A stretch of 64,000 bases of DNA from Flavobacteriales bacterium (lineage in GTDB: Bacteria > Bacteroidota > Bacteroidia > Flavobacteriales_D > JBKBNH01), in assembly GCA_046295395.1 (NCBI GenBank), contig JBKBNH010000002.1:142056-206055 (forward strand). The letters are read 5' to 3'. The position numbers and the translations under genes are program-made. The notes under the pieces were generated by a model. It made no database searches and had not been told where the DNA came from. It worked only from the letters and a program-made list of their open reading frames with translations. Shown in pieces: positions 31,102-58,128 of this stretch. Within the stretch, counting starts at the first letter, position 1; each line of letters begins with the position of its first letter.

Positions 31102-31117
31102 TAAACTGTAATTTACA

Positions 31118-33262: not shown

Positions 33263-33538
33263 TTTCTTTGAATACAACGAACCAATCAAAACTTGAAAAA
33301 AACTAAAAAGTCAACCCCCTGCTTTCTTCTAACTTCAAATCTTGCAAGAAAAAAAGCAAAAGAACATAGTAGGTTAAAATCCTACAATCAAATGACTGCT
33401 GCCAATAAGGGTTTATTAGCTCAATAATTTGATTTTAAAAACTACCGTCTTCTTTTTGAGATAAGGTATTGCTCGTCTCAACTACGTTGTTTAACAAAAA
33501 CACAGATAAAAAATAACAATAAACAACTGCACGCAACT

Positions 33539-33613
33539 GGCGGCTTGGCGTAATGCATCAAACCGTTCTGTATATTTGTAAGTGTAGGTGGTTTGGCACT
33601 ACGCCAAGCCGCC
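33539..33613. repeat. GC-rich 75-nt imperfect hairpin (14-bp perfect outer stem) in an AT-rich non-coding tract
   Basis: GGCGGCTTGGCGTA (33539-33552) pairs perfectly with TACGCCAAGCCGCC (33600-33613). An inner extension (CAAACC / GGTTTG) adds further pairing. There is no flanking T-run. Confidence 0.6.
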
Positions 33614-34074
33614 GTGATGTTATAGCCCATTTTAAAAAGACGACTTCAACGACTGTTCAGAAATATTAATATTTATTGATGCAACAAATGTAAATTTATT
33701 TATTTCAGGTTTTAATTCTAAGACCGAAGAAGTGTTTGATGAAAAAGGTATTACTGTTCAACTGACAGAATTTTGGGAAGAAAATCAAGACGCATACGAC
33801 TTTGACGATATAATAAAAAGTGTATTAAAAACAGCTTACAAAGAGAGCGAAAAGACATTATTAAAATCAAAGTATAAAGTGTTCTACCAGACGGAAGACG
33901 AAAGTGAATATAAACGACTATGAAAAGAAAAACGGGCTATAACACGGGTAGCCGTTGCACAACCTCTATAAAACCATAAAAAGTCGAGATTTTTACCCGA
34001 AAAACAAGTGGCTTATAATGGCTTGTTTGAGTTCATATAATAGTGCTTGCAATGAAGCTGCGCTCTTTTCTATT

Positions 34075-34263
34075 TTAGGGAGTTTGGGTTGCTTCTTTAA
34101 CTTTTTTGGACTTGAATTTTAGGTATTTCTTTAGGTTGTAAACCAAAGCACTCATCAACACCTATTTATTGGCTGCCTTTATCCCCTTTGTGTTTACTCT
34201 TTTGAGGTTAATAAAATTGGGCGTGGTGCCAAGCACGGGTTCACTGCTTCGGCAAAGCAACAG
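34075..34263 (-). mobile_element. Transposase C-terminal remnant (IS1182/IS5-like), with in-frame stop
   Basis: The minus-strand frame reads ...RSSEPVLGTTPNFINLKRVNTKGIKAANK*VLMSALVYNLKKYLKFKSKKVKEATQTP*. This resembles the conserved C-terminal tail of Bacteroidetes IS1182-type DDE transposases, as recalled from memory. The upstream body of the gene is absent. Confidence 0.4.
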
Positions 34264-34303
34264 AATTTACAAAGGCCTAAATCAATATATTCGGTTACGT
34301 TTG

Positions 34304-35056
34304 TTAAATCAGGTTTAGTCTATTCACCAAATCGTCTTTATAAGAACCACCAATTGGAATTACTTTTTTGTCGTTTTCCATAATGATGTTTGGCTGGTCT
34401 ATGCTGGCTATTTTATCTAAACGCACAATAAAAGAACGGTGTACACGAATAAAGTCGCGTTCGCTGAGTTTTTTCTCAATATCTTTCATGGTAGAATGGA
34501 TGGTGTAGCGGGTATTGAGGGTATTTATAACCACATAATCCTTGAGCGCCTCTATAAAAAATATGTCTTTAGAGTTGATTTTAACCAGCTTACTGTTGGC
34601 TTTTACAAATATAAACTCGTTACTCTCTTTATTATCTACAATGCTGTAAAGCAAATCTCGCTGCTTGAGCACCTCCTGCTCGCGACTGTGCTTATAAAGT
34701 GCCATTTCTATGGAAGTGTGCAGATCTATTTCTTTAAAAGGCTTAATGATGTAGCCGTAGGGCTCAGTAACTTTGGCTTTCGCTAGGGTGCTCTCGTCGG
34801 CATAGGCCGTAAGGTAAATTACCGGAATTCTATTGTTTTGCCTAATAGCTTCTGCGGCCTCTATACCATTCATTTGGCCTTTAAGCATGATGTCCATCAA
34901 CACAATTTGCGGCTGTAGTTCGTTGGCAAGCTCGACAGCTTTTTCGCCCGTTGCTGCGCTGCCTACAACACTGTATCCGAGCTTCTTCAGGCTCATTTGT
35001 ATGTCTTTAGATACGATGCTTTCGTCTTCTACTACAAGTACGTTTGCTAATGCCAT
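34304..35056 (-). CDS. LytR/AlgR-family response regulator (REC + LytTR DNA-binding domain)
   Basis: REC domain (VLVVEDESIV, VLMDIMLKGQMNG, IIKPF) plus a LytTR domain (FIFVKANSKLVKINSKDIFFIEALKDYVVINT...FIRVHRSFIVRLDKI). Confidence 0.9.
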   Translation of the reverse strand: MALANVLVVEDESIVSKDIQMSLKKLGYSVVGSAATGEKAVELANELQPQIVLMDIMLKGQMNGIEAAEAIRQNNRIPVIYLTAYADESTLAKAKVTEPYGYIIKPFKEIDLHTSIEMALYKHSREQEVLKQRDLLYSIVDNKESNEFIFVKANSKLVKINSKDIFFIEALKDYVVINTLNTRYTIHSTMKDIEKKLSERDFIRVHRSFIVRLDKIASIDQPNIIMENDKKVIPIGGSYKDDLVNRLNLI

Positions 35057-35077
35057 TAAAGTTTGATTTTTTTGTTT

Positions 35078-38000
35078 TTAACTAGCTGGTGCAAAGGTAA
35101 TCAAATATTTGGTGCCTTTTTTAGAATTTACCTTTATCGTGCCGTCCAGTTGCTCTATAAGTGTATAAACAAGCTGTAGCCCGAGCGATGATGAGTTTTC
35201 TACATCAAAGTTTTTGGGTAGCCCTATTCCATTGTCCTCTATTCTTATTTGTATCTGGTTGTGTTCTTGTTTCAGGCTCAAGAATATTTCACCTTTGGCG
35301 TTGTTTGGAAAAGCATATTTGAGCGCGTTGGAAATTATTTCGTTGACAATTAATCCGCAAGGAATGGCCTGATCCAAAGAAACACGAATATTATCTATGT
35401 CTTTCACTAATTTAATGTTTGATGAATTAATGGCGTAAGTGTGAAAAAGATTGGTAATTAAATTATTGAGGTAGTCGGCAAAATTAACTTCCGAAAAATT
35501 TTTGGTTTGATACAGGATTTCGTGAATGAACGACATGCTTTTAATTCGGTTTTGCCCTTCTTTTAGTATACTGATGGTGTCTTTGTCGGTAACAAATGAC
35601 GATTGCAAGTTAAGTATACTAGAAATTACTTGTAGGTTGTTTTTCACCCTGTGGTGAACTTCTTTTAAGAGTATTTCTTTTTCCTTTAGTGATTCTAGAA
35701 GCTTAGTTTCTGCCGTTTTTTGTTCGGTTATATCGCGAATAATTACCAACACTTCTTTGTTGTTTATGTTTACATATCGGGCTTCAAAAAAGCCTTGTTT
35801 ACCATTAACTTTAAGCGAATATTCGAATGGGATTATTTCGTCTGTTTTAACCGCCTTTTTAATGTTTTTCAAAAATTGTTTACCCAGCTCTGGGTTAATA
35901 AGATCTGTTACTCTTCCGCCTATAAACTTCTCAGGTTTTATAGCAAGCTGATCTTCTGATTTGTAAAACACATCTAGATAGTATCCGTCTGCGGTCATTC
36001 TGAATATTAAATCAGGTAGCGCATTTATCATTGCCTTGTTGTACTCTTCACTTTTTTTGAGTTTTATTTCGGCAACTTTTTTTTCTGTTATTTCGTGAAT
36101 TAAGCCTGCTATTTCTATAATTTTTTGTCCTTTTACCCGAATGGGGGTTAAGAACATTTCTAGCCAGATTGGTTTACCGTATAATCCGTTTATACTACCC
36201 TGAAATTCTTGTACCTCACCATTTAAAGCGGTTAGGTAAATTTCTTTCATTGCCTTAAATTTATTGTTATTCATAAACGGTTTCAGGTATTCCAAAATTT
36301 TATCTCCGTTTTTAATATCAATATTTATGTGTTTTTTCATTATGTCTATCAAGGCCGAATTGAACGATGTTAACTCCATGTTTTTATTCATGGTAAACAT
36401 CATCATGTTTGAGGTATTCTCAAAGAATGACTGAATTTTGGAAGATTGTTGTTTTACGAGTTCTTCGCTTTCTATTATTTTGGTTATATCTCTTAATACA
36501 TCTCGCGAACCGACATATTTACCTTCTTCATAAACTGCCGTAGAAGACAGTTCTACAAATCGGTTATTTCCTTTTGCTGTAGTAATTTGAATGGTAAAGC
36601 GCTGTATAAATCCTTCTTTTCTGAGAATTTTACTGTATTTAAGGCAATATTCAAGCGAATTGGGATGAACAAAGTCGTATAAATTTCCGGTGTGTACATT
36701 TTCGTTGAGTTCAAAAAGTTTTCTCGCTGCCTGATTTATGTCAATAAAATTATTTTTTTCATCCAACAGCAAAATAGCATCATACATATTTTCGAAAAGG
36801 CTACGAAACTTCTTTTCGCTTTCGATAAGTCCTTCTTCTGCTTTTTTCAATTCGGAAATATCTCTGGAAATTCCCATATATCCCACTATATTTCCTTTAT
36901 TGTCCTTAATGGTAGTAGCGGACAAGTATGAGGTAAAAAGTGTCTTATCTTTTCTAATATTAGTAATCTCTCCGAGAAATAAACCATGCTTGGTAATTGA
37001 ACTTATTACTTTTTCAAAATCTTCGTAATAATAATATAGGTCTGTGGCAGATAGGTTTATCATTTCTTCCTTGGTATAGCCAAATGCTAAAAGCGAAGAA
37101 GGACTTATTTGAGTTATCTTATTATTGATATCGGTTGCCATAATCATGTCTAGAGAGGAATTAATCATGTTTTTTGTAAACTCTTGATTTTTAATTAATT
37201 CCTGCTGAGTTTTCTTATGATTCTCTATTTCTTTGATAAGCTTTTTATTTGCCTCCTCGGCTAATTCCGCCCGTATAGTTTCGTCTTTTAGTTTTTTAGT
37301 TTGGGTTATATCTATGAGTGTGCCTTCTATAAATGTGTCTTTTCCCTTTTCGTTTTTAACTATATAAACATTGTTTAAGGTAAAAATTTCTTTACCTGCT
37401 TTTGTTTTGTATCGTGCTTCGTAGTTAAATAAAGATCGCTCTTTAAGTAATTTTTTTACGTAGTTATCTCTTTCTTTTTTAGAAAAATAAAAAGATTCTG
37501 ATTTTACACTTTTCATTTCTTCGAAAGACTTGTATCCAAAAATATTTGCAAAAGCAGTATTGCAAATTACCATTTCTCCATTAAGTCTAGTTCTGAAAAC
37601 CCCCGTAATGTTGTTTTCAAAAAGACTTCGGTATCTTTCTTCTGATTCTTTGAGGTAATTTTTATAATGTGCTTCATCGGTAACATTACGCGCAATGCCA
37701 AAATTTCCAATGTGTTTTTTATTTACATCGAATTGAGGAATAATTGTTTCTTCGATATAGATGTAATTAGAACTATTTCCCGGTAAAAAACGATAAGTGT
37801 GTTTTATTGGTTTTGTTGTATGCTTTATGCTTTTAGAAATTTCTAAAATAGAGGATAAATCATTGGGATGATAGTATCTTATAAGTTTATTGGATTTTGA
37901 AAGGGTGATAAATTCGTCAACTGAAAAACCAAATAATTGTTCTATATAAGGAGATACATAACGTATATATTTGTTACCCTTATCATCTATGGTAATATTG

Positions 38001-38425
38001 TAAACTACGTTATCTATGTTGTTAAGTATAGTGGTTAGTTTTTCATTTGTTTCATTTATTTGTTTGAAAGCTTTTAAAGACTCTGAATTATCTATAATTC
38101 TGATTATAAAATAATCTTTTTTGTTTTCGTTAACAACGTTGATATGAAAATCAACCAAGCTTTTATTACCGTTAAAATCCGAAAGCAGTTTTACGCCTTT
38201 CCAATTTTTATAATTAATTAGTTGTTCAGTAATATCTTTAATATCGTTTTCATCTAAATGGATAAGGTTTTTTTCCCACCAGTTTTGGTTAAGTAAATTG
38301 TTTTCAGCACAAGCTAATAGCTTACACACATAAGGATTAATAGCTAAAATTTTATAAGAATTCGCGTCAATAAGAAAAATAGCATCTGAAGAGGAACCGA
38401 AATATAAATTAAATTTAGACAGCAT
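35078..38425 (-). CDS. Cytoplasmic multi-PAS sensor histidine kinase (HisKA_2 / HWE-like core)
   Basis: 1115 aa with no TM segment. There are at least five PAS/PAC-like modules (repeated ...RDITE/RDISELK endings), an H-box KEVHHRVKNNLQVISSILNLQ, and a HATPase C-terminus (EDNGIGLP...LGLQLVYTL). Its ATG overlaps the upstream stop (TAATG). Confidence 0.85.
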   Translation of the reverse strand: MLSKFNLYFGSSSDAIFLIDANSYKILAINPYVCKLLACAENNLLNQNWWEKNLIHLDENDIKDITEQLINYKNWKGVKLLSDFNGNKSLVDFHINVVNENKKDYFIIRIIDNSESLKAFKQINETNEKLTTILNNIDNVVYNITIDDKGNKYIRYVSPYIEQLFGFSVDEFITLSKSNKLIRYYHPNDLSSILEISKSIKHTTKPIKHTYRFLPGNSSNYIYIEETIIPQFDVNKKHIGNFGIARNVTDEAHYKNYLKESEERYRSLFENNITGVFRTRLNGEMVICNTAFANIFGYKSFEEMKSVKSESFYFSKKERDNYVKKLLKERSLFNYEARYKTKAGKEIFTLNNVYIVKNEKGKDTFIEGTLIDITQTKKLKDETIRAELAEEANKKLIKEIENHKKTQQELIKNQEFTKNMINSSLDMIMATDINNKITQISPSSLLAFGYTKEEMINLSATDLYYYYEDFEKVISSITKHGLFLGEITNIRKDKTLFTSYLSATTIKDNKGNIVGYMGISRDISELKKAEEGLIESEKKFRSLFENMYDAILLLDEKNNFIDINQAARKLFELNENVHTGNLYDFVHPNSLEYCLKYSKILRKEGFIQRFTIQITTAKGNNRFVELSSTAVYEEGKYVGSRDVLRDITKIIESEELVKQQSSKIQSFFENTSNMMMFTMNKNMELTSFNSALIDIMKKHINIDIKNGDKILEYLKPFMNNNKFKAMKEIYLTALNGEVQEFQGSINGLYGKPIWLEMFLTPIRVKGQKIIEIAGLIHEITEKKVAEIKLKKSEEYNKAMINALPDLIFRMTADGYYLDVFYKSEDQLAIKPEKFIGGRVTDLINPELGKQFLKNIKKAVKTDEIIPFEYSLKVNGKQGFFEARYVNINNKEVLVIIRDITEQKTAETKLLESLKEKEILLKEVHHRVKNNLQVISSILNLQSSFVTDKDTISILKEGQNRIKSMSFIHEILYQTKNFSEVNFADYLNNLITNLFHTYAINSSNIKLVKDIDNIRVSLDQAIPCGLIVNEIISNALKYAFPNNAKGEIFLSLKQEHNQIQIRIEDNGIGLPKNFDVENSSSLGLQLVYTLIEQLDGTIKVNSKKGTKYLITFAPAS

Positions 38426-48504: not shown

Positions 48505-48858
48505 TTGAAAATTCTCAAAGCGATATTAATAATTTTTTCATTGTTTCTGTTTTCTGAAGCAAACGCCCAGTACAGAGATCCGTCAAAAAATAAAGCAAAA
48601 AAAGAAAAAAACCGGCAGGGCTCTCCAGTTTCTTTCAGAAAGAAAAATGCAGAACGAGCACTCCAAGCAGAATCAGACCCCTTTAAAAGCAAAAAACGAA
48701 AATCGAACAAGGATAAAACAAAAGAATCAGACCCTTTTAAATCTGGAGGAAAAAGAAAGAAGAAAAAGGAAAAAAAATATAAGAACTCATCAAAAGTTAG
48801 AAAAACACAAAAAACAAAAGACCCCTTTAAAAAACCTAAAAAAAACCAAAAAGGATAA
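48505..48858 (+). CDS. Secreted, extremely Lys-rich low-complexity protein with DPFK repeats
   Basis: TTG start followed by a clean signal peptide (KILKAILIIFSLFLFSEANAQ). The mature ~95 aa are dominated by Lys, with three DPFK motifs (SDPFKSKK, SDPFKSGGKRKKKK, KDPFKKPKK). Confidence 0.5.
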   Translation: MKILKAILIIFSLFLFSEANAQYRDPSKNKAKKEKNRQGSPVSFRKKNAERALQAESDPFKSKKRKSNKDKTKESDPFKSGGKRKKKKEKKYKNSSKVRKTQKTKDPFKKPKKNQKG

Positions 48859-48958
48859 CTTTGTAAAAAATGTATTTGGCACGATTTTTAGCCGAACGTG
48901 CTTCAAAAGCAAAATAATTCATAAATTGCGTAACTTCAGAAGGAAAACAAAAGTATAA

Positions 48959-49483
48959 GTGACCTGTTTAAACAAAATATTGGTTTTAGTCCTATCCTTT
49001 GTGGTATTTAACACACGAGGGCAGCAGGATTTTAAAACGAATAATAATCTTAAAGCAATTTATGTATACAATTTTACCACACTGGTTGATTGGCCTAAAG
49101 AATTTAAGCAAAACGATTTTGTGATAGGGGTGCTTGGCGATCAGGGTTTAGTGGATGTTTTGACACAAAAATATTCATCAAAAAATGTAGGCGCACAGCC
49201 TATAAAAATCAAAGCATACAAAAACGAGACAGAAGTTGATCAGTGTCATATCTTGTTTATTGCCAACAGCCAGTCGGCAACCGTAACGAGGCTTTCAAAA
49301 AAACTGACCAAATACAGCACACTTATAGTAGCGGAGTCTGCAGGGGCACTAGAATCAGGGGCTTGTATTAATTTTACAGCAAAAGATAATAAATTAGCGT
49401 ACGAATTGAGTAAATCAAACACAGAACGAATCAAATTAATATTGGGCAAAACCATATTAGAATTGGCGGTAAAAGTTAGTTAA
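48959..49483 (+). CDS. YfiR-family (DUF4154) periplasmic protein
   Basis: Signal peptide, then KAIYVYNFTTLVDWP...FVIGVLGD...CHILFIANS...TLIVAES...GACINF...ELSKSNTERIKLILGKTILELA, which matches the DUF4154/YfiR pattern. Confidence 0.75.
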   Translation: MTCLNKILVLVLSFVVFNTRGQQDFKTNNNLKAIYVYNFTTLVDWPKEFKQNDFVIGVLGDQGLVDVLTQKYSSKNVGAQPIKIKAYKNETEVDQCHILFIANSQSATVTRLSKKLTKYSTLIVAESAGALESGACINFTAKDNKLAYELSKSNTERIKLILGKTILELAVKVS

Positions 49484-50382
49484 TGAGCAAAAAGCTTTAC
49501 ATAGCGATCATATTTTGTTTACTGATGGTTTCAGGAGCTTATGCACAGTCTAAAAACTGGGAAAAAGCACTTAAGGCATATCAGGAAGAAAACTTTGATG
49601 ACGCCATAAAGTTCAGTGATAATTCTATTATGGATGATGCTGAAAGTAAAGACGCTTACACTTGGCATGTTCGTGGATTTATTTACAGAGCCGCACACAA
49701 AAAACTTGATGACAGCAGCCCAGCCTCTAAACTAAGAGAAACATCGATAGAATCCTTTCTCAAAAGTATTGAGCTTGATTCGAATAAAGAATTTGAAATT
49801 AAGAACAAAAGCGCAGTAATTAATTTAGCAAAAACCTATTTTAATGACGCCGTAAGAGCATTAAGCGCTGAAACTTTTGAAGACGCTATTGAATATTATG
49901 CCAAATACAAGGACGTTACCCGCCGGGTAGAGCCTGATTTCAGCTTTAAACAAACCGATATAGACTTTAACAACACCCTTGGCGCAGTATACCAAAACAT
50001 ATATGAAAATGATAAGGGCGCAAACCAAAATTTTATGCAAAAAGCCATTGATGTATATAAGACCACTATAGAAATAGACTCGCTTAACTATAATGCGAAC
50101 TACAATATAGGGGTTTTATATTACAATCAGGGTGTAGATTTAATTTTGTCTATTGACCCGGAAGCACCACTTCCTATTGTAATAGAAACTCAAGAAATGT
50201 GTGCAGAGTTATTTATACGGTCTTTACCATATATGAAAAGAGCGTATAATTTAAAACCAACAAATAGAGAAACCATCATTGGTCTTGCGGGCATTTATTT
50301 TAACTTGAATGATAACGAAAAGTCTAAATTTTTTAGCGACCTTTTGAAGGAGGTAGAAGATAACGACTCACCAAACAGATAG
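49483..50382 (+). CDS. Exported TPR-like helical repeat protein
   Basis: Signal peptide MSKKLYIAIIFCLLMVSGAYAQ and TPR-like helix pairs (WEKALKAYQEENFDDAIKF, YNANYNIGVLYYNQG, IIGLAGIYFNLNDNEKS). The start overlaps the upstream stop (TAATG). Confidence 0.45.
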   Translation: MSKKLYIAIIFCLLMVSGAYAQSKNWEKALKAYQEENFDDAIKFSDNSIMDDAESKDAYTWHVRGFIYRAAHKKLDDSSPASKLRETSIESFLKSIELDSNKEFEIKNKSAVINLAKTYFNDAVRALSAETFEDAIEYYAKYKDVTRRVEPDFSFKQTDIDFNNTLGAVYQNIYENDKGANQNFMQKAIDVYKTTIEIDSLNYNANYNIGVLYYNQGVDLILSIDPEAPLPIVIETQEMCAELFIRSLPYMKRAYNLKPTNRETIIGLAGIYFNLNDNEKSKFFSDLLKEVEDNDSPNR

Positions 50383-50394
50383 GAAAAAAACAAA

Positions 50395-52248
50395 ATGAGG
50401 TTTACTATAGGCAGACGTATAGGTCTTGGTTTCGGAATAGTGATATTTCTCATTTTGATTATTTTCTATTTTACCTTCAATACCCTTCGTCAGGGCTCAG
50501 ATACGTTAAACGAAAGTATCGAAAAAAACAAACGATTTAATGATGTAACTCAACCAACTATAGAGTTGCTCATTCGTTTGAAAGAAACCATTTTTGAGAC
50601 TAAAACACTTATTAATAAGTGGGCAACAGAACAAACGCGCGAAGACGATCAAAGCAAAATCAGACTTAAGAAAATCACCACAGAAATAGTTCCCTCAACA
50701 GTTAGACGATTAGAATCGCTTGCCTCGGAATGGTCTTCAGAAGAAGACAAGGGTCGGCTACAGCAGAACATCTTCAAAAACATAGAAGAGCTTTTTTCCA
50801 TGCACGAAACTTACGTTACTTCTATTTTGGTAGACTTCGATAGTTATAACGACCCATCAGCCTTGTTTTTGGCCAGGCCGGCAGTGCAGCCCGATGGAGA
50901 AATTAGCAAAAAAACCCAGCAAATTACAAACGAGCTTGATGATTTCATCAACAGAAAAAACGCCGAAGCGGCAAGTCAAAAAGATGAAATGAATAAATCT
51001 TTTGAGGTAACCGAAACAGGATTTGCTTGGTTGAAACTTTTAGTTGTTTTTTTTGGTTTAGCCTTATTTATAGGCACGGTTGTGATAGCCACCCTAACCT
51101 CTAGGTCTATTGTGGGGCCGGTTAACGAACTTAAGTTAATACTTTTTGATTTAGGGAAAGGAATTTTCCCAAAGACAAAAATGAAAGCAAGAAATGACGA
51201 AATCGGAGAAATGACTCTTGCGCTGGATAACTTAGTTGAAGGCCTGAAAAGAACAACCGACTTTTCTAGAGAGGTTGGTTCCGGCAACTTCGAATACGAC
51301 TATCAACCACTTTCAGAAGAAGATGTTTTGGGACATGCATTGCTAAAAATGCGTGATGAACTAGCTGAAAACGAAAGAGTTCTTGAGCAAAAAGTGGTAG
51401 AAAGAACCGAAGAGGTCGTTCGGCAGAAAGAAGAAATCGAAAACCAACGACAAAAACTGGAAGAGCTATACAAAGACGTAACAGATAGCATTAGGTATGC
51501 AAAACGCCTTCAGGACTCTATTCTTCCACCAGATTCTTTTGTAAAACAATTATTGCCGGAATCTTTCGTTTTATTCAGACCAAAAGACATCGTAAGCGGC
51601 GATTTTTACTGGATGGAAGAAACAAATAACAAAATACTTTTTTCGGCGGTAGATTGCACCGGACATGGTGTTCCTGGAGCATTTATGAGTATAGTTGGAG
51701 CAAATGCTTTAAATCAGGCGGTTGCTGCTTCAAAACTAGATACTCCCGGATTAATTTTAGACGAATTACACCGGCTGTCTTCAGAAGCGCTGAATAAAAC
51801 TTCAGATGAAAAATCTGTGAGGGACGGTATGGACTTAGCCATGTGCGCTCTTTCTAAAGATTACAAAACATTAGAATATGCCGGAGCAAATAATCCGCTT
51901 TACATATTAAGAAAAGATGAAATTATACAGACTAAAGCGGATAAATTTCCAATAGGAGGCTTCGAAGTAGGCCAGCATAACTATGCTACCCACACATTTG
52001 ACCTGCAGGATGGCGACATGATATACATATTTTCTGATGGTTACGCAGATCAGTTTGGAGGCTCAAAAGGTAAAAAATTCATGTATCGCCAGTTCAGGGA
52101 GGTGCTTATGGAAATAAGACATTTACCCATGAACAAACAAAGGCAAGAGCTTGAGCGAATCATGGAAGAATGGAAAGGAGTCTACGAACAGGTGGATGAT
52201 GTGTTGGTAATAGGAGTGAAAATTAACTTAAATCAAACTAAACCATGA
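50395..52248 (+). CDS. Membrane sensor with HAMP domain and PP2C/SpoIIE-family Ser/Thr phosphatase output
   Basis: TM1, a ~190-aa periplasmic helical domain, TM2, HAMP (IVGPVNELKL...DEIGEMTLALDNLVEGL), a coiled coil, then SpoIIE motifs (AKRLQDSILP, SGDFYW, DCTGHGVPGAFMS, DGMDLAM, FSDGYADQFGG, DDVLVIGVKI). Confidence 0.85.
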   Translation: MRFTIGRRIGLGFGIVIFLILIIFYFTFNTLRQGSDTLNESIEKNKRFNDVTQPTIELLIRLKETIFETKTLINKWATEQTREDDQSKIRLKKITTEIVPSTVRRLESLASEWSSEEDKGRLQQNIFKNIEELFSMHETYVTSILVDFDSYNDPSALFLARPAVQPDGEISKKTQQITNELDDFINRKNAEAASQKDEMNKSFEVTETGFAWLKLLVVFFGLALFIGTVVIATLTSRSIVGPVNELKLILFDLGKGIFPKTKMKARNDEIGEMTLALDNLVEGLKRTTDFSREVGSGNFEYDYQPLSEEDVLGHALLKMRDELAENERVLEQKVVERTEEVVRQKEEIENQRQKLEELYKDVTDSIRYAKRLQDSILPPDSFVKQLLPESFVLFRPKDIVSGDFYWMEETNNKILFSAVDCTGHGVPGAFMSIVGANALNQAVAASKLDTPGLILDELHRLSSEALNKTSDEKSVRDGMDLAMCALSKDYKTLEYAGANNPLYILRKDEIIQTKADKFPIGGFEVGQHNYATHTFDLQDGDMIYIFSDGYADQFGGSKGKKFMYRQFREVLMEIRHLPMNKQRQELERIMEEWKGVYEQVDDVLVIGVKINLNQTKP

Positions 52249-52832
52249 ATGAATGGTGGATTGAACTTTCCGGCACAGAAAAAGTATTTTGGATAATAGC
52301 TATTCCGGCTACTATCATTTTTCTTTTTGTTTTGGTTATCAACCTAATTGCCGGCATCGATAGCGGAGACCTCGACTCCTCTGACGGGTCTTTTGATGCA
52401 GACATGGCCGATGGCATAGGGTTTCAGTTCATTACATTTAAAACACTCCTAGCCTTTTTTACCATTTTTGCTTGGACAGGTATCGCGTGCCTTGATGCTC
52501 AATTTTCAACCACAGTATCTGTTTTAATAGCAACCGGAGCAGGAACGGTAATGATGGCGCTTACCGCTTGGTTTTATTATTTTATGGCTAAAATGTCTGA
52601 GAGCGGAACACTTAAAATAAACAAGGCCATTGGCGCAATAGGCGAGGTATATTTAACCATACCAGCCAATGCCCAAACGGTAGGAAAAGTACAAATAAAA
52701 CTCCAAGGCTCACTCCATGAATTAGACGCCATAACAGACGATGAAAAAGATATAACCAGAGGCAAATTAGTAAGAGTAACCGATGTTGTAAACAACACCA
52801 TATTAAAAGTAACCCTTAACACAAACACATAA
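52245..52832 (+). CDS. NfeD-family membrane protein (OB-fold C-terminus)
   Basis: Three or four TM helices and a C-terminal beta-rich domain (GEVYLTIPANAQTVGKVQIKLQGSLHELDAITDDEKDITRGKLVRVTDV). ATGA overlap with the phosphatase gene; a flotillin gene follows directly. Confidence 0.7.
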   Translation: MNEWWIELSGTEKVFWIIAIPATIIFLFVLVINLIAGIDSGDLDSSDGSFDADMADGIGFQFITFKTLLAFFTIFAWTGIACLDAQFSTTVSVLIATGAGTVMMALTAWFYYFMAKMSESGTLKINKAIGAIGEVYLTIPANAQTVGKVQIKLQGSLHELDAITDDEKDITRGKLVRVTDVVNNTILKVTLNTNT

Positions 52833-52837
52833 AAATC

Positions 52838-54220
52838 ATGTTTGAAGACTTAAATTACATTACCATTCTCATCGCCATTGTGGTGGGATTTTTCTTCATT
52901 TTTGTATTAACCTTCATAAGAAGATATAGAAGGTGTCCTTCGGACAAAATTTTGGTTGTTTATGGCAAAGTAGGCGGGGGCTCAGCTAAGTGTATTCACG
53001 GAGGAGCGGCATTTATATGGCCGCTTATACAAGATTATTCCTATTTGGATTTAACACCGATTTCTATCGAGGTGAACCTTGCTAATGCACTCTCCAAACA
53101 AAACATTCGGGTTGATGTACCCTCTCGTTTTACCGTAGGTATTTCCACAGAGCCTGTAATTATGAACAATGCTGCAGAGCGTTTGTTGGGATTAAAACAA
53201 CAGCAAATCTACGACATAGCCAGAGATATCATTTTTGGTCAGTTGAGGTTAGTTGTTGCCACCATGGATATAGAAGAAATTAATAGCAATAGGGATAAAT
53301 TTTTGGCAAACGTGTCTGCCAACGTGGAGGCAGAGCTTAAAAAAATAGGCCTCCGCCTAATTAACGTAAACGTAACCGACATTAAAGATGAATCCGGCTA
53401 TATCGAAGCATTAGGCAAGGAGGCTGCAGCTAAAGCCATCAACGATGCCAGACAGAGCGTAGCAGAGAAAAACAGAGACGGCTCCGTGGGAGAGGCCAAT
53501 GCCGTACAAGAGCAGCGGGTAAAGGTAGCCCAAGCTAACGCTACAGCAGTAGAAGGAGAGAACCTCTCGAAAATATTAATTGCTAATTCTGATGCTTTAA
53601 GACGAGAAAAGGAGGCCGAAGCTGAAAAAATAGCCATTGCCGCTGAAAAAGTACAAACAGCCAAAGCCCTCGAAGAGTCTTATGCAGCAGAAAGAGAAGC
53701 AGAAACAGCCAGGGCACAAAGAGACAAAGCCTCTCAGGTCGCAGACGTTATAGTTCCTTCTCAAATCGAAAAAGAAAGAATAGAAATACAAGCCGAAGCG
53801 CAGGCAGAGCAAATAAGAAGAATTGCAAAAGGAGAGGCCGACGCAATCTTATTTAGAAAACAAGCCGAAGCACAGGGATTACTCGAAATTCTTACTAAAC
53901 AAGCCGAAGGTCTGGACCGAATTGTGAAAGCCGCAGGAAATAATTCCAGAGATGCCGTCCTATTGCTTATAGCAGATAAGTTGCCAGAAATTATTAAAAC
54001 ACAAGCCGAAGCAATTAAAAACATAAAAATTGATAAAGTAACCGTGTGGGAAGGAGGAACAAATGCAGATGGCAAGACATCTACAGCAAACTTTATCTCA
54101 GGTTTATACAAATCTGTTCCGCCGCTTGACGACATGTTTAAAATGGCAGGAATGGAATTGCCATCGTATTTAAAAGGAAAAACAGAAGACCCAGCAAACA
54201 ATAATGACCAAGCCGAATAA
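52838..54220 (+). CDS. Flotillin-family SPFH (band 7) protein
   Basis: N-terminal anchor, an SPFH domain (RCPSDKILVVYGK...IWPLIQDYSYLDLTP...), and a long Ala/Glu-rich flotillin coiled coil (EAEAEKIAIAAEKVQTAKALEESYAAEREAE). Confidence 0.85.
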   Translation: MFEDLNYITILIAIVVGFFFIFVLTFIRRYRRCPSDKILVVYGKVGGGSAKCIHGGAAFIWPLIQDYSYLDLTPISIEVNLANALSKQNIRVDVPSRFTVGISTEPVIMNNAAERLLGLKQQQIYDIARDIIFGQLRLVVATMDIEEINSNRDKFLANVSANVEAELKKIGLRLINVNVTDIKDESGYIEALGKEAAAKAINDARQSVAEKNRDGSVGEANAVQEQRVKVAQANATAVEGENLSKILIANSDALRREKEAEAEKIAIAAEKVQTAKALEESYAAEREAETARAQRDKASQVADVIVPSQIEKERIEIQAEAQAEQIRRIAKGEADAILFRKQAEAQGLLEILTKQAEGLDRIVKAAGNNSRDAVLLLIADKLPEIIKTQAEAIKNIKIDKVTVWEGGTNADGKTSTANFISGLYKSVPPLDDMFKMAGMELPSYLKGKTEDPANNNDQAE

Positions 54221-57200
54221 AATAAATAGTTCAATAAAAAGAGCCTTGATTAATCTAATCAGGGCTTTTGTTTTTATTGGCCTAGCATGCGGACAAGCAC
54301 AGCACAGTATTAAGTTCGACAACATCTCCCTGAATGAAGGGCTCTCTCAGAGCACTATTTCTGCAATAATTCAGGACTCGCAAGGCTACATGTGGTTTGG
54401 CACACAAGACGGATTAAATCGTTACGACGGATACAGATTCAAAATATATAAACACGACCCAGATATTTCAACCTCCATCTCCGGAAATTTTATAAAATGT
54501 ATAATGGAAGACGGAGACTATCTTTGGATAGGAACCGAAACAGGGGGGGTAAATCGTTATGAAAAAAGCAGAGATGTTTTCCGAACATTTGATCATATAG
54601 ACCAATTAAGACACTCTGCTGTTACCGCTCTTGCCAAAGATAAAAGCGGTAAGATATGGATAGGGACAGATGATAATGGATTGATAAGTTTTTCTCCAAA
54701 AGAAGGAAGAGTAGAACATTTTAACGAAAACAACGGGCTAATGTCCAACAACATTAAGGGGCTTAAATTTTTACCCGAAGGATTTTTGTTAATCGGCCAG
54801 CTAGATGGCCAATTACAATATTTGAATGTAAAGGAAAACAAACTTAAAACTGTAAAGGACAACAAAATATACGGCTCAAATTTTTATTCGTTCGAAACTT
54901 CTAAAAATGGGCAAACCCTAGTCGGAACAGATAGAGGAGTAATTACTTTGCAAATAGAAAATAACGAACCGACCATAAAAAAAAGAATCTATCCGGTAGA
55001 ACAAGCCTCTTCTCTTTTACTTCAGAACGATTCAACCCTTTGGGCAGCCACAGAAGGGTTTGGCTTATTTAAAATTGATCTGAACAAATCCAAAACAAAT
55101 AATTACAGATATGACCCGTTGAATAGAAAGAGTATTGCCGAAAACCTCATTTTCAGCGTATTTCAAGACAGGAGCGGCTGTATTTGGATAGGCACAAACA
55201 ACGGGCTAAGTAAGTTCGACCCTATTAAGCAATTTTTCAACCACATAGCACCCGAGCCCGACAATCCTAAAGGACTAAACGACAAAACAATCTGGGCAAT
55301 AGCTAAAGACAAACGAAACCGGCTTTGGGTGGCCACGAGCAAGGGGCTTAGCCGAGTAGATGAAAACTCTTTGGTTGCTGTAAATTATCCATTTGTTGGC
55401 AACAACCCCAACTTGCCCAACAACAACAATGTATACAGTGTTCTACCAGAAGATGATTTTCTGTGGCTTGGAACGGTAGATGGATTTTATAAACTCAATT
55501 TTTCAAACGACAAGCTAGAAAAGGTAAACCTTGGAGAGTTTGAGCAAACCGCAGACAAAAGAATTTACCACATAACAAAAGACAAAAATGGCAACATATG
55601 GCTTGGCGCTAAAGAAGGTCTATGTTTTTATAACGTAAAAGACAGAACAACGGCACATTTTAAGAGCAGCCCATCAAAAAACAAATCCCTTCCGGGAAGA
55701 ACGGTAAGAGCCGTTCATGTGGACAGCAAGGGAAACTTGTGGGTCGGAACCGAAGGCGGAGGTCTGGGGTTTGTTTCAAGCGATCAGATTACAACACAGC
55801 CAAAAGAACTTTCTTTTGATGTGTATAGCGCAAGTTCGGCAGACTATAAAGCCTTAAACAACAATATTATAACAACAATTTTTGAAGACCAAGACGGCAC
55901 GCTTTGGCTTGGCACATACGGCGGCGGATTAAATGCGTTAAACCCAAAAACAGGAAAATTCAGGCGTTACACGGAAAAAGAAGGCCTGTCAAACAATGTT
56001 GTTTATGCCATTCTTTCCGAGAACGAAAATGCACTTTGGATGAGCACCAACTTTGGTTTGTCAAGGCTAGAAAAAGCAACCGGAGCCTTTAAAGTTTTTC
56101 TAGAAAAAGACGGCCTTCAGAGTAACGAGTTTAATATAGGCGCCGCATATAGAGCGAAAGATGGAAAATTATATTTTGGTGGAATAAACGGGTTAAATAG
56201 CTTTTATTCGACACAAATAACAGAAAACAGAATTCCACCGGAAGTATTAATTACCGGAATTTTATTGTTTAATCAACCTATAAAAATAGGCCCGTCATCG
56301 CCACTTCAAACGGACGTTTCATTTGCGCAAGAAATTGCTCTAAAACACAGACAAAATAATCTTACAATAGAATACGCAGCACTACACTTTTCTAATTCGG
56401 CAAACAATAAATACAAGTTTATTTTAGAGGGATACGAGGAACAAATGAATTATGTGAGTGATGTAAAAAGAGCACATTACAGTAATCTTCCTCCCGGAGA
56501 ATACACGTTCAAAGTGTTCGGGTCTAATAGCGACGGTATTTGGAGCCAATCTCCGGCAAAACTGCGGATAGTAATACTTCCTCCCTATTATGCAACTTGG
56601 TGGTTTAGAGGAATTTTAGGCATTGTCTTGCTTTTAGTTGTTTATACCTTTTACCAGCTAAGGATAAGAACCATCCGTCTTCAAAAACAAAAACTATCCG
56701 AACTAGTTGAAAAACGAACAGCAACCATCAGAAAACAAAAAGAAATGATGGAAGAACAAAAACTACAGCTTGAACTGGAAAAAGAAAAAAGCGACAAACT
56801 GCTAATAAATATTCTTCCGGCAGAAACAGCAGAGGAACTAAAAAATCACGGAAAAGCAACAACAAGAACATATCGCTTAGTCACAGTAATGTTTACAGAC
56901 ATTATAGGGTTTACCCAAATTGCCGAAAAAATGAATCCGGTAGATCTCGTAAAAAGACTAGATGAGTATTTCAGGGAGTTTGACAAAATAATAGAGCGAA
57001 ATAAAATTGAAAAAATAAAAACAATTGGTGATTCATATATGGCCGCAGGCGGAGTGCCAATAAGAAATAAAGAAAACCCCGTGTATACAGTTTTGGCGGC
57101 ACTTCAGATTCAAAAGTTAATGCGGGATAAAAAAGAAGAAGCGATAACCAAAGGAGAAGCAGACCCTTGGGATCTCAGGGTGGGCATTCATACAGGAGAT

Positions 57201-58100
57201 GTAATTGCAGGAGTAATCGGAGAAAAGCGAATTGCATACGACATTTGGGGCAACACAGTAAACGTGGCAAGTCGGATGGAAAGCAGCGGAATGCTCGGAA
57301 AGGTAAACATATCGGGGGCAACCTACGAACACATAAAACCCTATTTTGATGTAGTATACAGGGGTAAGATTATGGCCAAAAATAAAGGCCATATCGACAT
57401 GTACTTTGTTGAGCGAATTAAGCCGGGGCTTTCGGAAGACGAGGGGGGCACTGTTCCAAACGCTAAGTTTTGGGAATACCTGAATTTACATGTGTTCAGC
57501 AGTATAAACTACCACAAGGCAGAAAGGCATATTATGAAAATATTGGTAGAAAAATTATCACCAAATCTTCATTATCATGGCATTCATCATACGGCAGATG
57601 TTGTTCAGGCTGTTGAAAGAATTGCCATAATGGAAGGGGTGGTAGACGAACATATATTTGTTTTGAAATCAGCAGCAACATACCATGACGCCGGTTTTGT
57701 AGAACAATACGAACACAACGAACCTGTAGGGGCAAAAATGGCCGAAGAAATCTTGCCTCTTTATGGATACACAAAAGAACAAATCCAACAGGTAAAAGAG
57801 TTAATTTATTCAACCATTATACCCCATAACCCCAAAAATAAACTGGAAGAAATTATCTGCGATGCAGATTTAGACTATCTGGGAAGAGATGATTTTCACG
57901 ATATAGCCGATTCTTTAAGGCGTGAATTGAGAGATCATGGAAAATTAAACAGTGATAGACTTTGGGATGAGATTCAGGTGAAATTTTTAACCGCACATAA
58001 ATACTTTACAGACTCTGCAAAAAGACTCAGAGATCCAAAAAAACAAAAGCATCTGGAAGAAATAAAACAACGCTTAATAGAAAACAAGTACAACGATTAG
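54204..58100 (+). CDS. Periplasmic two-component-regulator propeller + Y_Y_Y sensor fused to a class III adenylate cyclase and a C-terminal HD domain
   Basis: 1298 aa with a signal peptide and many Reg_prop repeats (GYMWFGTQDGLNRYDG etc.). Y_Y_Y domain (NKYKFILEGYEE...YSNLPPGEYTFKVFGSNSDGIWS). One TM helix at about 56590-56660, then a coiled coil. Cyclase core at about 56870-57420 (VTVMFTDIIGFT, KTIGDSYMAAGG, YDIWGNTVNVASRMES). HD domain at about 57560-57900 (HGIHHTADV, TYHDAGF, CDADLDYLGRDDF). Confidence 0.85.
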   Translation: MTKPNKINSSIKRALINLIRAFVFIGLACGQAQHSIKFDNISLNEGLSQSTISAIIQDSQGYMWFGTQDGLNRYDGYRFKIYKHDPDISTSISGNFIKCIMEDGDYLWIGTETGGVNRYEKSRDVFRTFDHIDQLRHSAVTALAKDKSGKIWIGTDDNGLISFSPKEGRVEHFNENNGLMSNNIKGLKFLPEGFLLIGQLDGQLQYLNVKENKLKTVKDNKIYGSNFYSFETSKNGQTLVGTDRGVITLQIENNEPTIKKRIYPVEQASSLLLQNDSTLWAATEGFGLFKIDLNKSKTNNYRYDPLNRKSIAENLIFSVFQDRSGCIWIGTNNGLSKFDPIKQFFNHIAPEPDNPKGLNDKTIWAIAKDKRNRLWVATSKGLSRVDENSLVAVNYPFVGNNPNLPNNNNVYSVLPEDDFLWLGTVDGFYKLNFSNDKLEKVNLGEFEQTADKRIYHITKDKNGNIWLGAKEGLCFYNVKDRTTAHFKSSPSKNKSLPGRTVRAVHVDSKGNLWVGTEGGGLGFVSSDQITTQPKELSFDVYSASSADYKALNNNIITTIFEDQDGTLWLGTYGGGLNALNPKTGKFRRYTEKEGLSNNVVYAILSENENALWMSTNFGLSRLEKATGAFKVFLEKDGLQSNEFNIGAAYRAKDGKLYFGGINGLNSFYSTQITENRIPPEVLITGILLFNQPIKIGPSSPLQTDVSFAQEIALKHRQNNLTIEYAALHFSNSANNKYKFILEGYEEQMNYVSDVKRAHYSNLPPGEYTFKVFGSNSDGIWSQSPAKLRIVILPPYYATWWFRGILGIVLLLVVYTFYQLRIRTIRLQKQKLSELVEKRTATIRKQKEMMEEQKLQLELEKEKSDKLLINILPAETAEELKNHGKATTRTYRLVTVMFTDIIGFTQIAEKMNPVDLVKRLDEYFREFDKIIERNKIEKIKTIGDSYMAAGGVPIRNKENPVYTVLAALQIQKLMRDKKEEAITKGEADPWDLRVGIHTGDVIAGVIGEKRIAYDIWGNTVNVASRMESSGMLGKVNISGATYEHIKPYFDVVYRGKIMAKNKGHIDMYFVERIKPGLSEDEGGTVPNAKFWEYLNLHVFSSINYHKAERHIMKILVEKLSPNLHYHGIHHTADVVQAVERIAIMEGVVDEHIFVLKSAATYHDAGFVEQYEHNEPVGAKMAEEILPLYGYTKEQIQQVKELIYSTIIPHNPKNKLEEIICDADLDYLGRDDFHDIADSLRRELRDHGKLNSDRLWDEIQVKFLTAHKYFTDSAKRLRDPKKQKHLEEIKQRLIENKYND

Positions 58101-58108
58101 TAAACAAA

Positions 58109-58128
58109 AAAGCCTTTATAGGCTTTTT
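58109..58128 (+). terminator. Rho-independent terminator after the cyclase gene
   Basis: Stem AAAGCCT (58109-58115) pairs with AGGCTTT (58120-58126) around loop TTAT, running into a T-run. Confidence 0.7.

Follow-up and report, generated by a model that had tools for sequence, protein, structure and literature searches.

In the YfiBNR (TpbB) system, the periplasmic repressor YfiR controls the HAMP-GGDEF enzyme YfiN, whose periplasmic domain has a PAS-like fold, and the lipoprotein YfiB sequesters YfiR. SiaABCD is a partner switch of Pseudomonas aeruginosa in which SiaA is a membrane HAMP-PP2C phosphatase. Bacterial flotillins act as scaffolds for membrane-bound sensor kinases, KinC of B. subtilis among them. 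Bacteroidota are not known to make much use of c-di-GMP, and GGDEF and class III cyclase domains have a common fold. SiaC has been described to bind a coiled-coil stalk that precedes the catalytic domain on its N-terminal side, an interaction that is blocked when T68 is phosphorylated (PMC8457831).

We compared these systems with a cluster of six plus-strand open reading frames at positions 48959-58100 of a 64-kb stretch of Flavobacteriales DNA (hereafter the window). A preliminary description had reported a single-strand run of six genes with short junctions, and the coordinates and overlaps of the reading frames agree with it: from gene 1 to gene 6, consecutive genes are separated by -1, +12, -4, +5, and -17 nt. 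The domain content was likewise confirmed, with Pfam matches to DUF4154, TPR_11, SpoIIE, Band_7, Reg_prop, Y_Y_Y, and Guanylate_cyc in the reported order; the HAMP, NfeD, and HD assignments are weak in the window copies and were upheld through orthologues or an AlphaFold model. Past gene 6, where a terminator had been claimed, a hairpin search located an intrinsic-terminator-like site that closes the cluster (58107-58128, plus strand).

The first three genes form a triad. Gene 1 (48959-49483, plus strand) encodes a periplasmic YfiR-like protein with a signal peptide, and matches Pfam DUF4154 at 1.3e-30 over 141 of the 143 profile positions. It scores 108.7 bits against the NCBIfam 'TOL_0243 family YfiR-like' model (cut-off 125), and fails the canonical NCBIfam YfiR equivalog with 23 bits (cut-off 85). 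Gene 2 (49483-50382, plus strand) encodes an exported TPR protein of 299 amino acids (TPR_11, 3.6e-8; TPR_19, 3.8e-7), the signal peptide of which is visible in the translation. Gene 3 (50395-52248, plus strand) encodes an inner-membrane, SiaA-like sensor phosphatase, laid out as a first transmembrane helix, a periplasmic helical bundle (approximately residues 30-210), a second transmembrane helix, HAMP, a coiled coil, and a SpoIIE/PP2C domain (Pfam SpoIIE, 7.8e-18). The HAMP match is at E 0.0027 in the window copy and is recorded in most orthologues, and the catalytic Asp/Gly residues of the PP2C domain are invariant across 21 orthologues.

As in YfiBNR, the gene for a DUF4154 protein lies directly upstream of that for a HAMP membrane enzyme with two transmembrane helices, and there is a third exported partner. 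The preliminary description had drawn this analogy, which holds for the DUF4154 protein but not for the remainder of the system. The output of gene 3 is PP2C rather than GGDEF, and the phosphatase is nearest to SiaA. Its periplasmic domain is predicted by the AlphaFold model to be an all-helical bundle, and one orthologue gives a weak match to 4HB_MCP (E 0.0036); we know of no case in which a DUF4154 protein binds a helical-bundle sensor. In place of an outer-membrane OmpA/Pal-like lipoprotein such as YfiB, the triad has a soluble TPR protein that is exported: gene 2 has no OmpA match in Pfam and no lipobox discernible by eye in its signal peptide, and an OmpA-like gene conserved among the compared loci was not found.

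The phosphatase itself resembles SiaA, which has the same layout of two transmembrane helices, HAMP, and PP2C, and which is its closest relative by NCBIfam, by PDB sequence, and by fold. The NCBIfam SiaA model matches gene 3 at 1.3e-67, covering only residues 284-610, with 229 bits against a cut-off of 700. The SiaA-PP2C structure 6k4e was the sole sequence match in a PDB search (1.5e-35) and the best Foldseek match (30% identity, TM 0.85). The two differ in that the N-terminal sensor of gene 3 is unrelated to that of SiaA, and siaB, siaC, and siaD are missing from the window locus. To our knowledge, SiaABCD also lacks two periplasmic partner genes preceding the phosphatase, as are present in the window. 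No GGDEF domain, and thus no SiaD output, was found among the Pfam matches of the cluster, and the cyclase that lies beside the phosphatase is predicted to make cAMP rather than c-di-GMP.

This cyclase is encoded by gene 6 (54204-58100, plus strand) and is a predicted receptor adenylate cyclase. The protein comprises a signal peptide, periplasmic Reg_prop propellers (5e-53, in 6 stretches) and Y_Y_Y (2.7e-15), a transmembrane helix, a coiled-coil stalk, a class IIIa cyclase domain (Guanylate_cyc, 1.9e-51), and a putative HD domain at the C-terminus. Among known cyclases, the catalytic domain has its best matches in mammalian AC8, AC9, and AC5 and mycobacterial Cya. Read from the alignment, the Lys and Asp that specify ATP (in IKTIGD and YDIWG, respectively) are present, as are the two metal-binding Asp residues and the transition-state Asn/Arg, and the segments FTDIIGFT, IGDSYM, IKTIGD, YDIWG, and GNTVNVASRME align with the catalytic AC8 C1/C2 motifs and are invariant in 7 orthologues. 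Gene 6 thereby carries the catalytic residues expected of a class III adenylate cyclase, and is predicted to be an enzyme. Pfam did not detect HD in the window copy; for one orthologue the score is 35.7 bits (cut-off 22), and neither the orthologues of gene 6 nor 20 stand-alone relatives vary at the H..HD..D residues. Members of this HD subfamily are repeatedly fused to cyclases and to cNMP-binding domains, in one case together with a PP2C. It has no characterised member, and its nearest solved relatives, 2pq7 and YedJ, are both uncharacterised; the domain probably acts on cyclic nucleotides. Hybrid two-component sensors of Bacteroides have the same Reg_prop/Y_Y_Y periplasmic architecture, but their outputs are kinase, receiver, and AraC, where gene 6 has a cyclase and HD. 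Class IIIa cyclases of the Rv1625c/Cya type are held by a six-helix membrane anchor, in contrast to the single transmembrane helix of gene 6, although in its catalytic domain gene 6 is nearest to the C2 domains of mammalian tmACs and to mycobacterial Cya, with specificity residues of the ATP type.

Between the phosphatase and the cyclase lie genes for an NfeD-family membrane protein and a flotillin. Gene 4 (52245-52832, plus strand) is of the YuaF/YqiJ type, with N-terminal transmembrane helices and a C-terminal beta-barrel. Its Pfam NfeD match is weak (E 0.053); in its AlphaFold model (pLDDT 80.6) the barrel best matches the NfeD protein YuaF (2k14; E 4e-6, TM 0.69), along with 1510-C (3wwv) and YbbJ (8z5g), and some homologues are labelled by JGI as 'membrane protein implicated in regulation of membrane protease activity'. 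Gene 5 (52838-54220, plus strand) is a FloT-like SPFH/Band_7 flotillin (Band_7, 1.4e-29) with a hydrophobic N-terminus and an Ala/Glu-rich C-terminal half, and its best NCBIfam match is FloT (6.7e-48, 164 bits, under the cut-off of 700). As in the B. subtilis yuaF-floT and E. coli yqiJ-yqiK operons, the NfeD gene is immediately upstream of the flotillin gene, the fold of gene 4 is like that of YuaF, and the pair ends in a terminator-like element. It differs from these operons in lying within a signalling gene cluster, and in that genes 4 and 5 fall under the curated cut-offs for NfeD (Pfam) and FloT (NCBIfam).

The element after the flotillin (54239-54279, plus strand) is a terminator-like hairpin with a 14-bp stem and a U tract, the strong fold being at 54239-54269, which begins 19 nt past the flotillin stop codon, inside the signal-peptide codons of gene 6. 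Its folding energy is -21 kcal/mol (z -6.15), and equally good folds arose in 0 of 200 shuffles. A hairpin with a T tract occupies this position in six of the seven six-gene loci (the window, L081, L082, L084, L086, and L169). Four of these, the window, L081, L084, and L169, have the 9-mer AAGCCTTGA in common. A terminator also closes stand-alone NfeD-flotillin pairs. The hairpin is probably a leaky terminator or attenuator. The cluster had been called a near-gapless six-gene operon; the short junctions stand, but because this hairpin recurs in nearly all six-gene loci, an attenuator may be concealed within it.

Upstream of the triad, a TTG-initiated reading frame of 117 amino acids (48505-48858, plus strand) encodes a small exported lysine-rich protein with a signal peptide, a mature N-terminus beginning QYRDPS, and repeated D-P/S-F motifs. 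Between the ferritin and DUF4154 genes of L081, L082, L084, L086, and L170 lie genes for proteins with the same signal peptide, a mature start of QYRDP(S/F), and D[PSA]F repeats rich in K, and the equivalent slot in L085, L167, L006, and L009 holds Lys-rich DSF-repeat proteins. In the triad, a DUF4154 gene precedes genes 2 and 3 in every locus with enough upstream DNA, and gene 2 is flanked by genes 1 and 3 wherever the triad occurs (27-38% identity, coverage >0.85). Beyond the window, 28 loci across Bacteroidota retain all three genes (18 genome loci and 10 further). Synteny thus shows the triad to be the core of the cluster, and a gene for a small, predicted exported Lys-rich protein usually comes before it. 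Further, the sequence TTTGGCACGATTTTTAGC (48875-48892, plus strand), 83 nt upstream of gene 1, belongs to a conserved motif of the form TGGCAY/TGGTAY-N-(G/A)TTT-T-N-G, located 85-125 nt upstream of the DUF4154 gene and kept in the window, L081, L082, L084, L085, L086, L167, L168, and L169; L008 and L093 retain the TGGCAT half only. The exact form occurs once in the 64-kb window. The motif resembles the -24/-12 elements of a sigma-54 promoter, with the -12 GC imperfect in several loci, and is a lead at the level of the motif. The Lys-rich gene, the TGGCAC-type motif, and the post-flotillin hairpin are all absent from the preliminary description.

The six-gene order is not private to the window genome. 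It was found in six other genomes, including that of the cultured Parvicella tangerina, with PP2C identities to the window of 54-89% and scrambled flanks. No paper in the searched literature describes the combination, which bears out the earlier statement to that effect. Most of the loci compared are MAG contigs. Of the 13 loci in one clade, 12 have the cyclase behind the triad; in a neighbour-joining tree, which carries no support values, the cyclase-linked loci form a single clade with six-gene and four-gene forms interleaved. The pairwise identities of genes 1, 2, 3, 5, and 6 correlate at 0.82-0.95, indicating that these genes are co-inherited.

From this distribution we propose, with about an even chance of being right, that the cluster is a conserved locus for envelope signalling, made up of layers: a triad core, a cyclase layer, and a flotillin layer. 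On an envelope cue, the YfiR-like and TPR proteins would bind or release the periplasmic bundle of the sensor, HAMP would relay the change inward, and the PP2C domain would remove phosphate from a Ser/Thr phosphoprotein. The strict synteny of the triad in the 28 other loci speaks for a possible physical repression of the membrane enzyme by the DUF4154 protein. By analogy with SiaA, and because SiaB and SiaC genes directly follow the cassette in one locus (L040), the likely substrate would be a SiaC-type adaptor encoded elsewhere in the genome. Downstream of the phosphatase, one Flavobacteriales clade has the receptor adenylate cyclase, with its own glycan-sensor-type periplasmic domain and an HD domain with a probable action on cyclic nucleotides. 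Given this placement, phosphatase signalling and cAMP output are co-inherited, would be co-expressed, and probably belong to one pathway. The cyclase would be transcribed through the leaky terminator of the NfeD-flotillin pair, giving high flotillin and low cyclase expression.

Alternatively, the triad, the NfeD-flotillin pair, and the cyclase could be neighbours by descent with no functional coupling. All three do occur apart: the triad stands alone in about 16 loci, cyclase orthologues of 33-44% identity are found without the cassette in five (L088, L089, L092, L094, and L113), and the flotillin pair turns up in a biotin locus; within the cluster, the terminator-like hairpin divides flotillin from cyclase. 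The five cassette-free cyclases make the link clade-specific, and it could reflect inertia. Against this, the adjacency persists in 12 of the 13 clade loci at PP2C identities of 50-60% and gene 1 identities of 30-48%, every downstream flank differs, and the orientation is always the same. Moreover, the space between the hairpin and the cyclase start is too short for a promoter, and three of the loci, namely the window, L081, and L086, have the cyclase start codon before the hairpin, which would force co-transcription. We regard mere juxtaposition as unlikely.

A tblastn search of the 64-kb window gave no homologue of SiaB, SiaC, or RsbW, and DUF6272/SiaB-like and SiaC queries returned nothing below E 1; a Pfam scan of ten other window reading frames found no partner-switch domains, and none of the three genes was found within 10 kb of any six-gene locus. 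The earlier remark that partner-switching genes are not nearby agrees with these searches for SiaB, SiaC, and RsbW in the window, but this absence does not make the family switch-free, because in L040 the orthologous phosphatase is directly followed by DUF6272 (3.4e-40) and SiaC (5.1e-45) genes. SiaB-like/SiaC genes also lie within ~5-8 kb of the cassette in L008 and L020.

A more specific possibility is that the locus is a cAMP version of SiaABCD, in which the phosphatase would dephosphorylate a SiaC-type adaptor or the cyclase itself, the YfiR-like protein would gate the switch, and the adaptor would switch on the class III cyclase by binding its coiled-coil stalk, as SiaC does with the diguanylate cyclase SiaD. 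In keeping with this, the phosphatase is SiaA-like, the slot directly behind it is filled by SiaB and SiaC in L040 and by the cyclase in 12 loci, and a long coiled-coil stalk precedes the cyclase domain of gene 6. SiaC is known to bind such a stalk (PMC8457831), and the SiaC-like protein of L040 keeps a Y-x-N-T-S motif. Nevertheless, SiaB and SiaC are out of reach at every cyclase-linked six-gene locus, those of L008 flank a different PP2C, and no SiaC-cyclase interaction is known, so that we consider this version quite improbable. Equally doubtful, in our estimation, is a full periplasmically gated phosphatase-to-cAMP switch, running from the YfiR-like and TPR proteins through PP2C and a client to the cyclase stalk, with HD as the off-switch and flotillin tuning the assembly. 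If true, the locus would do with cAMP what SiaABCD does with c-di-GMP.

The layered reading bears on the NfeD-flotillin pair, which is present in 7 of the 12 cyclase-linked loci; in the other five clade members, the triad is followed by the cyclase without it. In L171 and L172 (Flavobacteriaceae), the pair lies within the bioF..bioB biotin cluster, and embedding in an unrelated operon would therefore be a habit of the flotillin module. Flotillin identity is 70-90% among six-gene loci (70-80% without the window/L081 pair), and the window flotillin is 73-74% identical to the biotin-locus copies; comparing these two sets, we saw no sequence specialisation. The preliminary description had proposed a dedicated membrane microdomain, made by flotillin and NfeD, in which the PP2C sensor and the receptor cyclase come together physically in one signalling complex, and while the pair keeps a constant position with short junctions in seven genomes down to 54% PP2C identity, both its neighbours are membrane enzymes, and KinC offers a precedent, this proposal fares poorly against a pair that is facultative, carries its own terminator, has its closest relatives in a biotin operon, and shows no lineage-specific divergence, and is in our view a long shot. 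By its distribution and sequence, the pair is an ordinary housekeeping module that is inserted optionally and has a putative terminator of its own; it would represent the cell's general flotillin module lodged between two enzymes, and not a dedicated scaffold. Its presence inside a biotin operon elsewhere calls for caution in reading function into the position of a flotillin.

Ser/Thr phosphatase and cAMP signalling in Bacteroidota are almost unstudied. Judged from its predicted proteins, the cluster is an uncharacterised locus of YfiR-type and SiaA-type signalling. The occurrence of the full cluster in cultured Parvicella tangerina makes the link between cassette and cyclase directly testable. 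The widely conserved triad would extend YfiR-type control beyond diguanylate cyclases, and in one clade the cassette is persistently linked, genetically, to a receptor cyclase with an uncharacterised HD domain.

The six consecutive plus-strand ORFs of the preliminary description were recovered exactly at its coordinates, with junctions of -1, +12, -4, +5 and -17 nt, and the terminator proposed for the end of the cluster corresponds to a real terminator-like site at 58107-58128. Domain content was also largely as described. Gene 1 encodes a DUF4154/YfiR-like protein (Pfam, 1.3e-30), gene 2 an exported TPR protein, gene 3 a SpoIIE-type PP2C phosphatase, gene 5 a flotillin (Band_7), and gene 6 a receptor with six Reg_prop stretches, Y_Y_Y and Guanylate_cyc. 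HAMP in gene 3 (E 0.0027) and NfeD in gene 4 (E 0.053 by sequence) were weak in the window copy, and the HD domain of gene 6 went undetected there by Pfam, yet these assignments hold up through orthologues or a structural model: HAMP was recorded for most gene 3 orthologues, and HD exceeded the Pfam threshold in one gene 6 orthologue, its H..HD..D residues being invariant.

We then compared related loci, taking phosphatase orthologues from GTDB genomes and metagenome assemblies as well as from loci reached through the cyclase; scanning metagenomes with an alignment of the cyclase caught propeller motifs, and true cyclase orthologues were present in only about 10 of 80 loci. Genes 1-3 (the triad) kept their order and strand in all 18 genome loci that had a complete orthologue and sufficient sequence upstream, and likewise in 10 further loci; the triad loci are labelled as Flavobacteriales, Vicingaceae, Weeksellaceae, Sphingobacteriaceae and Cytophagales MAGs. 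The six-gene order is not private to the window genome, since six other loci hold it (L081, L082/83, L084, L086, L168 and L169, with PP2C identities to the window of 89, 60, 59, 55, 54 and 55%), L086 being the isolate genome of Parvicella tangerina (OU015584.1), where the cluster occupies about 3.402-3.412 Mb. Downstream of the six-gene order, the neighboring genes differ in every locus (GT2, YidD, GldH, GerE regulator, Usp and others). In L001, L008, L093, L167 and L170 (51-57%) the triad is followed by the cyclase without NfeD or flotillin, and L085 (56%), nested in the same clade, has the triad only. All cyclase-linked loci formed one clade in a neighbor-joining tree of the phosphatase (calculated without support values), with six- and four-gene forms interleaved, a pattern for which the simplest reading is that the flotillin pair, facultative in this clade, was lost repeatedly. 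Pairwise identities of genes 1, 2, 3, 5 and 6 among the six-gene loci correlated at 0.82-0.95, indicating that these genes are co-inherited. A pure juxtaposition of three independent modules appears unlikely; five metagenome loci do have full-length cyclase orthologues (33-44% identity) but lack the cassette.

Neighboring genes recurred in some loci. Among the more distant loci with the triad only, L003, L010, L013, L015 and L019 have an ECF-type sigma-70 gene on the opposite strand, upstream of the DUF4154 gene and divergent from it. In L001, L002, L004, L005, L008, L012, L167 and L169, a tandem universal-stress-protein (Usp) gene on the opposite strand faces the cluster convergently from its downstream side. 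Either may point to a stress context for the cassette. A PAS kinase/LytTR regulator/RNase R/ferritin block directly precedes the cassette in L001, L081 and L085. Its window counterpart (30153-38425) comprises genes for ferritin (30153-30662, minus strand), RNase R (31118-33262, plus), the LytTR regulator (34304-35056, minus) and the PAS kinase (35078-38425, minus). Because this block is ~18 kb from the cassette and partly inverted, with MscS and DUF3078 genes in its former place, the window genome appears locally rearranged.

The phosphatase of the triad resembles SiaA, the PP2C phosphatase of the SiaABCD partner-switch system. SiaA was the best NCBIfam match of gene 3 (1.3e-67; 229 bits, below the 700-bit equivalog cut-off and covering the HAMP-to-PP2C part only), and the SiaA-PP2C domain (6k4e) was both its only PDB sequence match and its top Foldseek match. 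The catalytic Asp/Gly residues are invariant. In the predicted model, TM1 is followed by an all-helical periplasmic bundle (residues about 30-210, pLDDT 80-93), TM2, HAMP, a coiled coil and PP2C; Pfam returned one weak 4HB_MCP/TarH match for the periplasmic domain, in a single orthologue. Whereas the periplasmic domain of YfiN, in the YfiR-controlled YfiBNR system, is PAS-like, that of gene 3 is thus modeled as helical. Gene 1 carries DUF4154 yet fails the YfiR equivalog model (a phmmer search against the PDB gave no match), and the third partner is a TPR protein rather than an OmpA-like lipoprotein.

In L040, a Cytophagales MAG, a DUF6272 gene (SiaB-like, 3.4e-40) and a SiaC-family gene (5.1e-45) come immediately after the orthologous triad. 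Similar SiaB/SiaC pairs were found ~5-8 kb downstream of the triad in L008 and L020, and adjoining paralogous PP2C sensors in L073 and L117. SiaC is a phospho-adaptor and the dephosphorylation target of SiaA, and it binds the coiled-coil stalk of a nucleotide cyclase, thereby activating it (PMC7647112, PMC8457831). A true SiaABCD-like switch with a cAMP output, in which a SiaC-type adaptor would act on the cyclase stalk, would have this precedent; homologues of SiaB, SiaC and RsbW were found neither in the 64-kb window nor near any six-gene locus, and we consider such a switch quite improbable here. In L085, the one clade member without a cyclase, two genes at 11907-15799 come after the phosphatase: one for a 1153-aa coiled-coil membrane protein (faint DUF4175 match) and one for an RsbW-type Ser kinase of 141 aa (HATPase_c_2, 1.9e-25). 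They may be a further partner-switch output in the same slot.

Since the position right after the phosphatase is occupied by the receptor adenylate cyclase-HD in one Flavobacteriales clade and by SiaB/SiaC in L040, we suggest that this slot carries an output module. The reading that we prefer, at about an even chance of being correct, is that what is conserved here is a SiaA-like phosphatase cassette under periplasmic control (lysine-rich, YfiR-like, TPR and sensor PP2C proteins) with an output module downstream. The periplasmic proteins would bind the sensor bundle, and the phosphatase, for which the identity of the substrate is presumptive, would regulate the cyclase.

The catalytic domain of gene 6 is of class IIIa, closest to mammalian AC8/9/5 and mycobacterial Cya, and it retains both metal-binding Asp residues, the ATP-specifying Lys and Asp, and the Asn/Arg pair. 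Because the catalytic and ATP-specifying residues are present, we predict a homodimeric adenylate cyclase. Its periplasmic Reg_prop/Y_Y_Y module is of the same sensor type as in Bacteroides hybrid two-component systems, where these sensors bind glycans. Many Bacteroidota paralogues fuse a Reg_prop/Y_Y_Y propeller directly to a PP2C close to that of gene 3 (45-55% identity, catalytic half; loci L024-L026, L030, L036, L041, L042, L045, L048, L049, L051, L052, L058, L059, L076, L077, L163 and L165), and sensor and output modules (PP2C, cyclase) are therefore interchangeable in the phylum.

The HD domain is the most conserved part of gene 6 (mean column identity 81%). Its subfamily, with 3487 cluster representatives, includes stand-alone proteins of ~200 aa, C-terminal domains on several cyclase types and N-terminal domains on cNMP-binding domains. 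Its nearest solved structures, 2pq7 and YedJ, are both uncharacterised, and a PDB profile search with the HD C-terminus yielded nothing useful. One subfamily match, P0298 (817 aa), joins an N-terminal HD to cNMP-binding and SpoIIE PP2C phosphatase domains, interrupted by a DUF559 endonuclease-like insert; another, P0390 (1145 aa), has HD N-terminal on a cNMP-binding hybrid histidine kinase. Domain associations suggest that HD would act as a cyclic-nucleotide-related hydrolase, and the P0298 and P0390 fusions hint at cyclic-nucleotide-regulated phosphatases and a cNMP role for the subfamily.

Upstream of gene 1, we observed two features missing from the preliminary description. An ORF at 48505-48858 (plus strand) encodes an exported lysine-rich protein of 117 aa (35% K+R; mature N-terminus QYRDPS; D-P/S-F repeats). 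It is conserved between the ferritin-like and DUF4154 genes in L081, L082, L084, L086 and L170, with a looser form in L085, L167, L006 and L009, and may be a seventh cluster member. Between this ORF and gene 1 lies a sigma-54 -24/-12-like motif, TTTGGCACGATTTTTAGC (48875-48892, plus strand). About nine related loci share the motif TGGCAY-N5-T-N-G (fuller form TTTGGCAY-N-GTTTT-NG(C)), 85-125 nt ahead of the DUF4154 gene; two others retain its -24 half only. Judged from sequence, it is a candidate promoter with putative sigma-54 dependence, and a lead rather than a demonstrated promoter because the -12 GC is imperfect in several loci. A scan of ten other signalling-type ORFs in the window found no sigma-54 activator gene; a sigma-70 promoter scan gave 36 sites versus 30.5 expected, which is uninformative for Bacteroidota, and upstream occurrence of the Bacteroidetes-type TAnnTTTG box was inconsistent. 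A second conserved box, TATCTTGCGAAAC (window form AAATTGCGTAAC), lies nearer the gene 1 start codon, near 48925-48940.

For gene 4, Pfam gave no NfeD match above threshold in the family and did not reproduce PF25842, which is recorded for some homologues, and a PDB profile search found nothing useful. Structure prediction resolved its identity: in the AlphaFold model (pLDDT 80.6), the C-terminal barrel is matched best in the PDB by the NfeD proteins YuaF, 1510-C and YbbJ. The gene 4 product is 100% identical to an NCBI protein (locus tag ACK4K0_02205), which places the window in a Flavobacteriales MAG. The family is widespread in Flavobacteriia. In two genomes, those of Flavobacteriaceae bacterium AU392 and of Leptobacterium flavescens, bioF and bioB flank the same NfeD-like/flotillin pair, and no signalling genes are close by. 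The window flotillin is 73-74% identical to these copies versus 73-77% to the five more distant six-gene loci (70-90% among six-gene loci overall), and so is the ordinary, highly conserved flotillin rather than a specialised paralogue. The earlier proposal that flotillin organises the two enzymes in a dedicated microdomain assembly, which drew on the position of the pair between them, is the least supported part of that description and distinctly unlikely, since elsewhere the pair is embedded in an operon unrelated to signalling, which makes position a weaker argument for a shared complex.

The junctions are short, as expected of the near-gapless operon first described, but six of the seven six-gene loci have a terminator-like hairpin and T tract 3' of flotillin. 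In the window, a previously missed 14-bp hairpin followed by TTTTGTTTTT (54239-54279, plus strand) begins 19 nt past the flotillin stop, within the signal-peptide codons of gene 6 (dG -21 kcal/mol, z -6.15; 0 of 200 shuffles fold as well). Equivalent hairpins lie at 13846-13886 in L081, about 14060-14100 in L084 and 12971-13010 in L169, and four of the six-gene loci share the 9-mer AAGCCTTGA. A canonical terminator closes the stand-alone NfeD-flotillin pairs. In three loci (the window, L081 and L086) the start codon of the cyclase is 5' of the hairpin, so that the same bases form RNA hairpin and coding sequence, and in L082, L084 and L169 the hairpin is intergenic, leaving no space for a promoter ahead of the cyclase start; the cyclase must therefore be transcribed through the hairpin. 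We infer a leaky terminator or attenuator, which would set a high flotillin to low cyclase ratio. RNAalifold on the six hairpins did not establish covariation, with L086 and L082 misaligned and both sides changed at one pair only. A downstream alternative start for gene 6 was rejected: the sole nearby ATG is out of frame, and the hairpin region encodes the signal peptide. L167, which lacks flotillin, keeps a GGCCCTG...CAGGGCTTTG hairpin just 5' of the cyclase start, possibly a remnant of a flotillin pair that was deleted.

Within the searchable library, our literature searches turned up no paper that connects DUF4154 to a phosphatase, or flotillin/NfeD to an operon with a cyclase, and nothing relevant on TOL_0243 or on Y_Y_Y with adenylate cyclase. 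The parts are all of known kinds, and their combination is new within YfiR-type and SiaA-type signalling. The cluster is conserved enough to merit testing, and it is testable in a cultured species.
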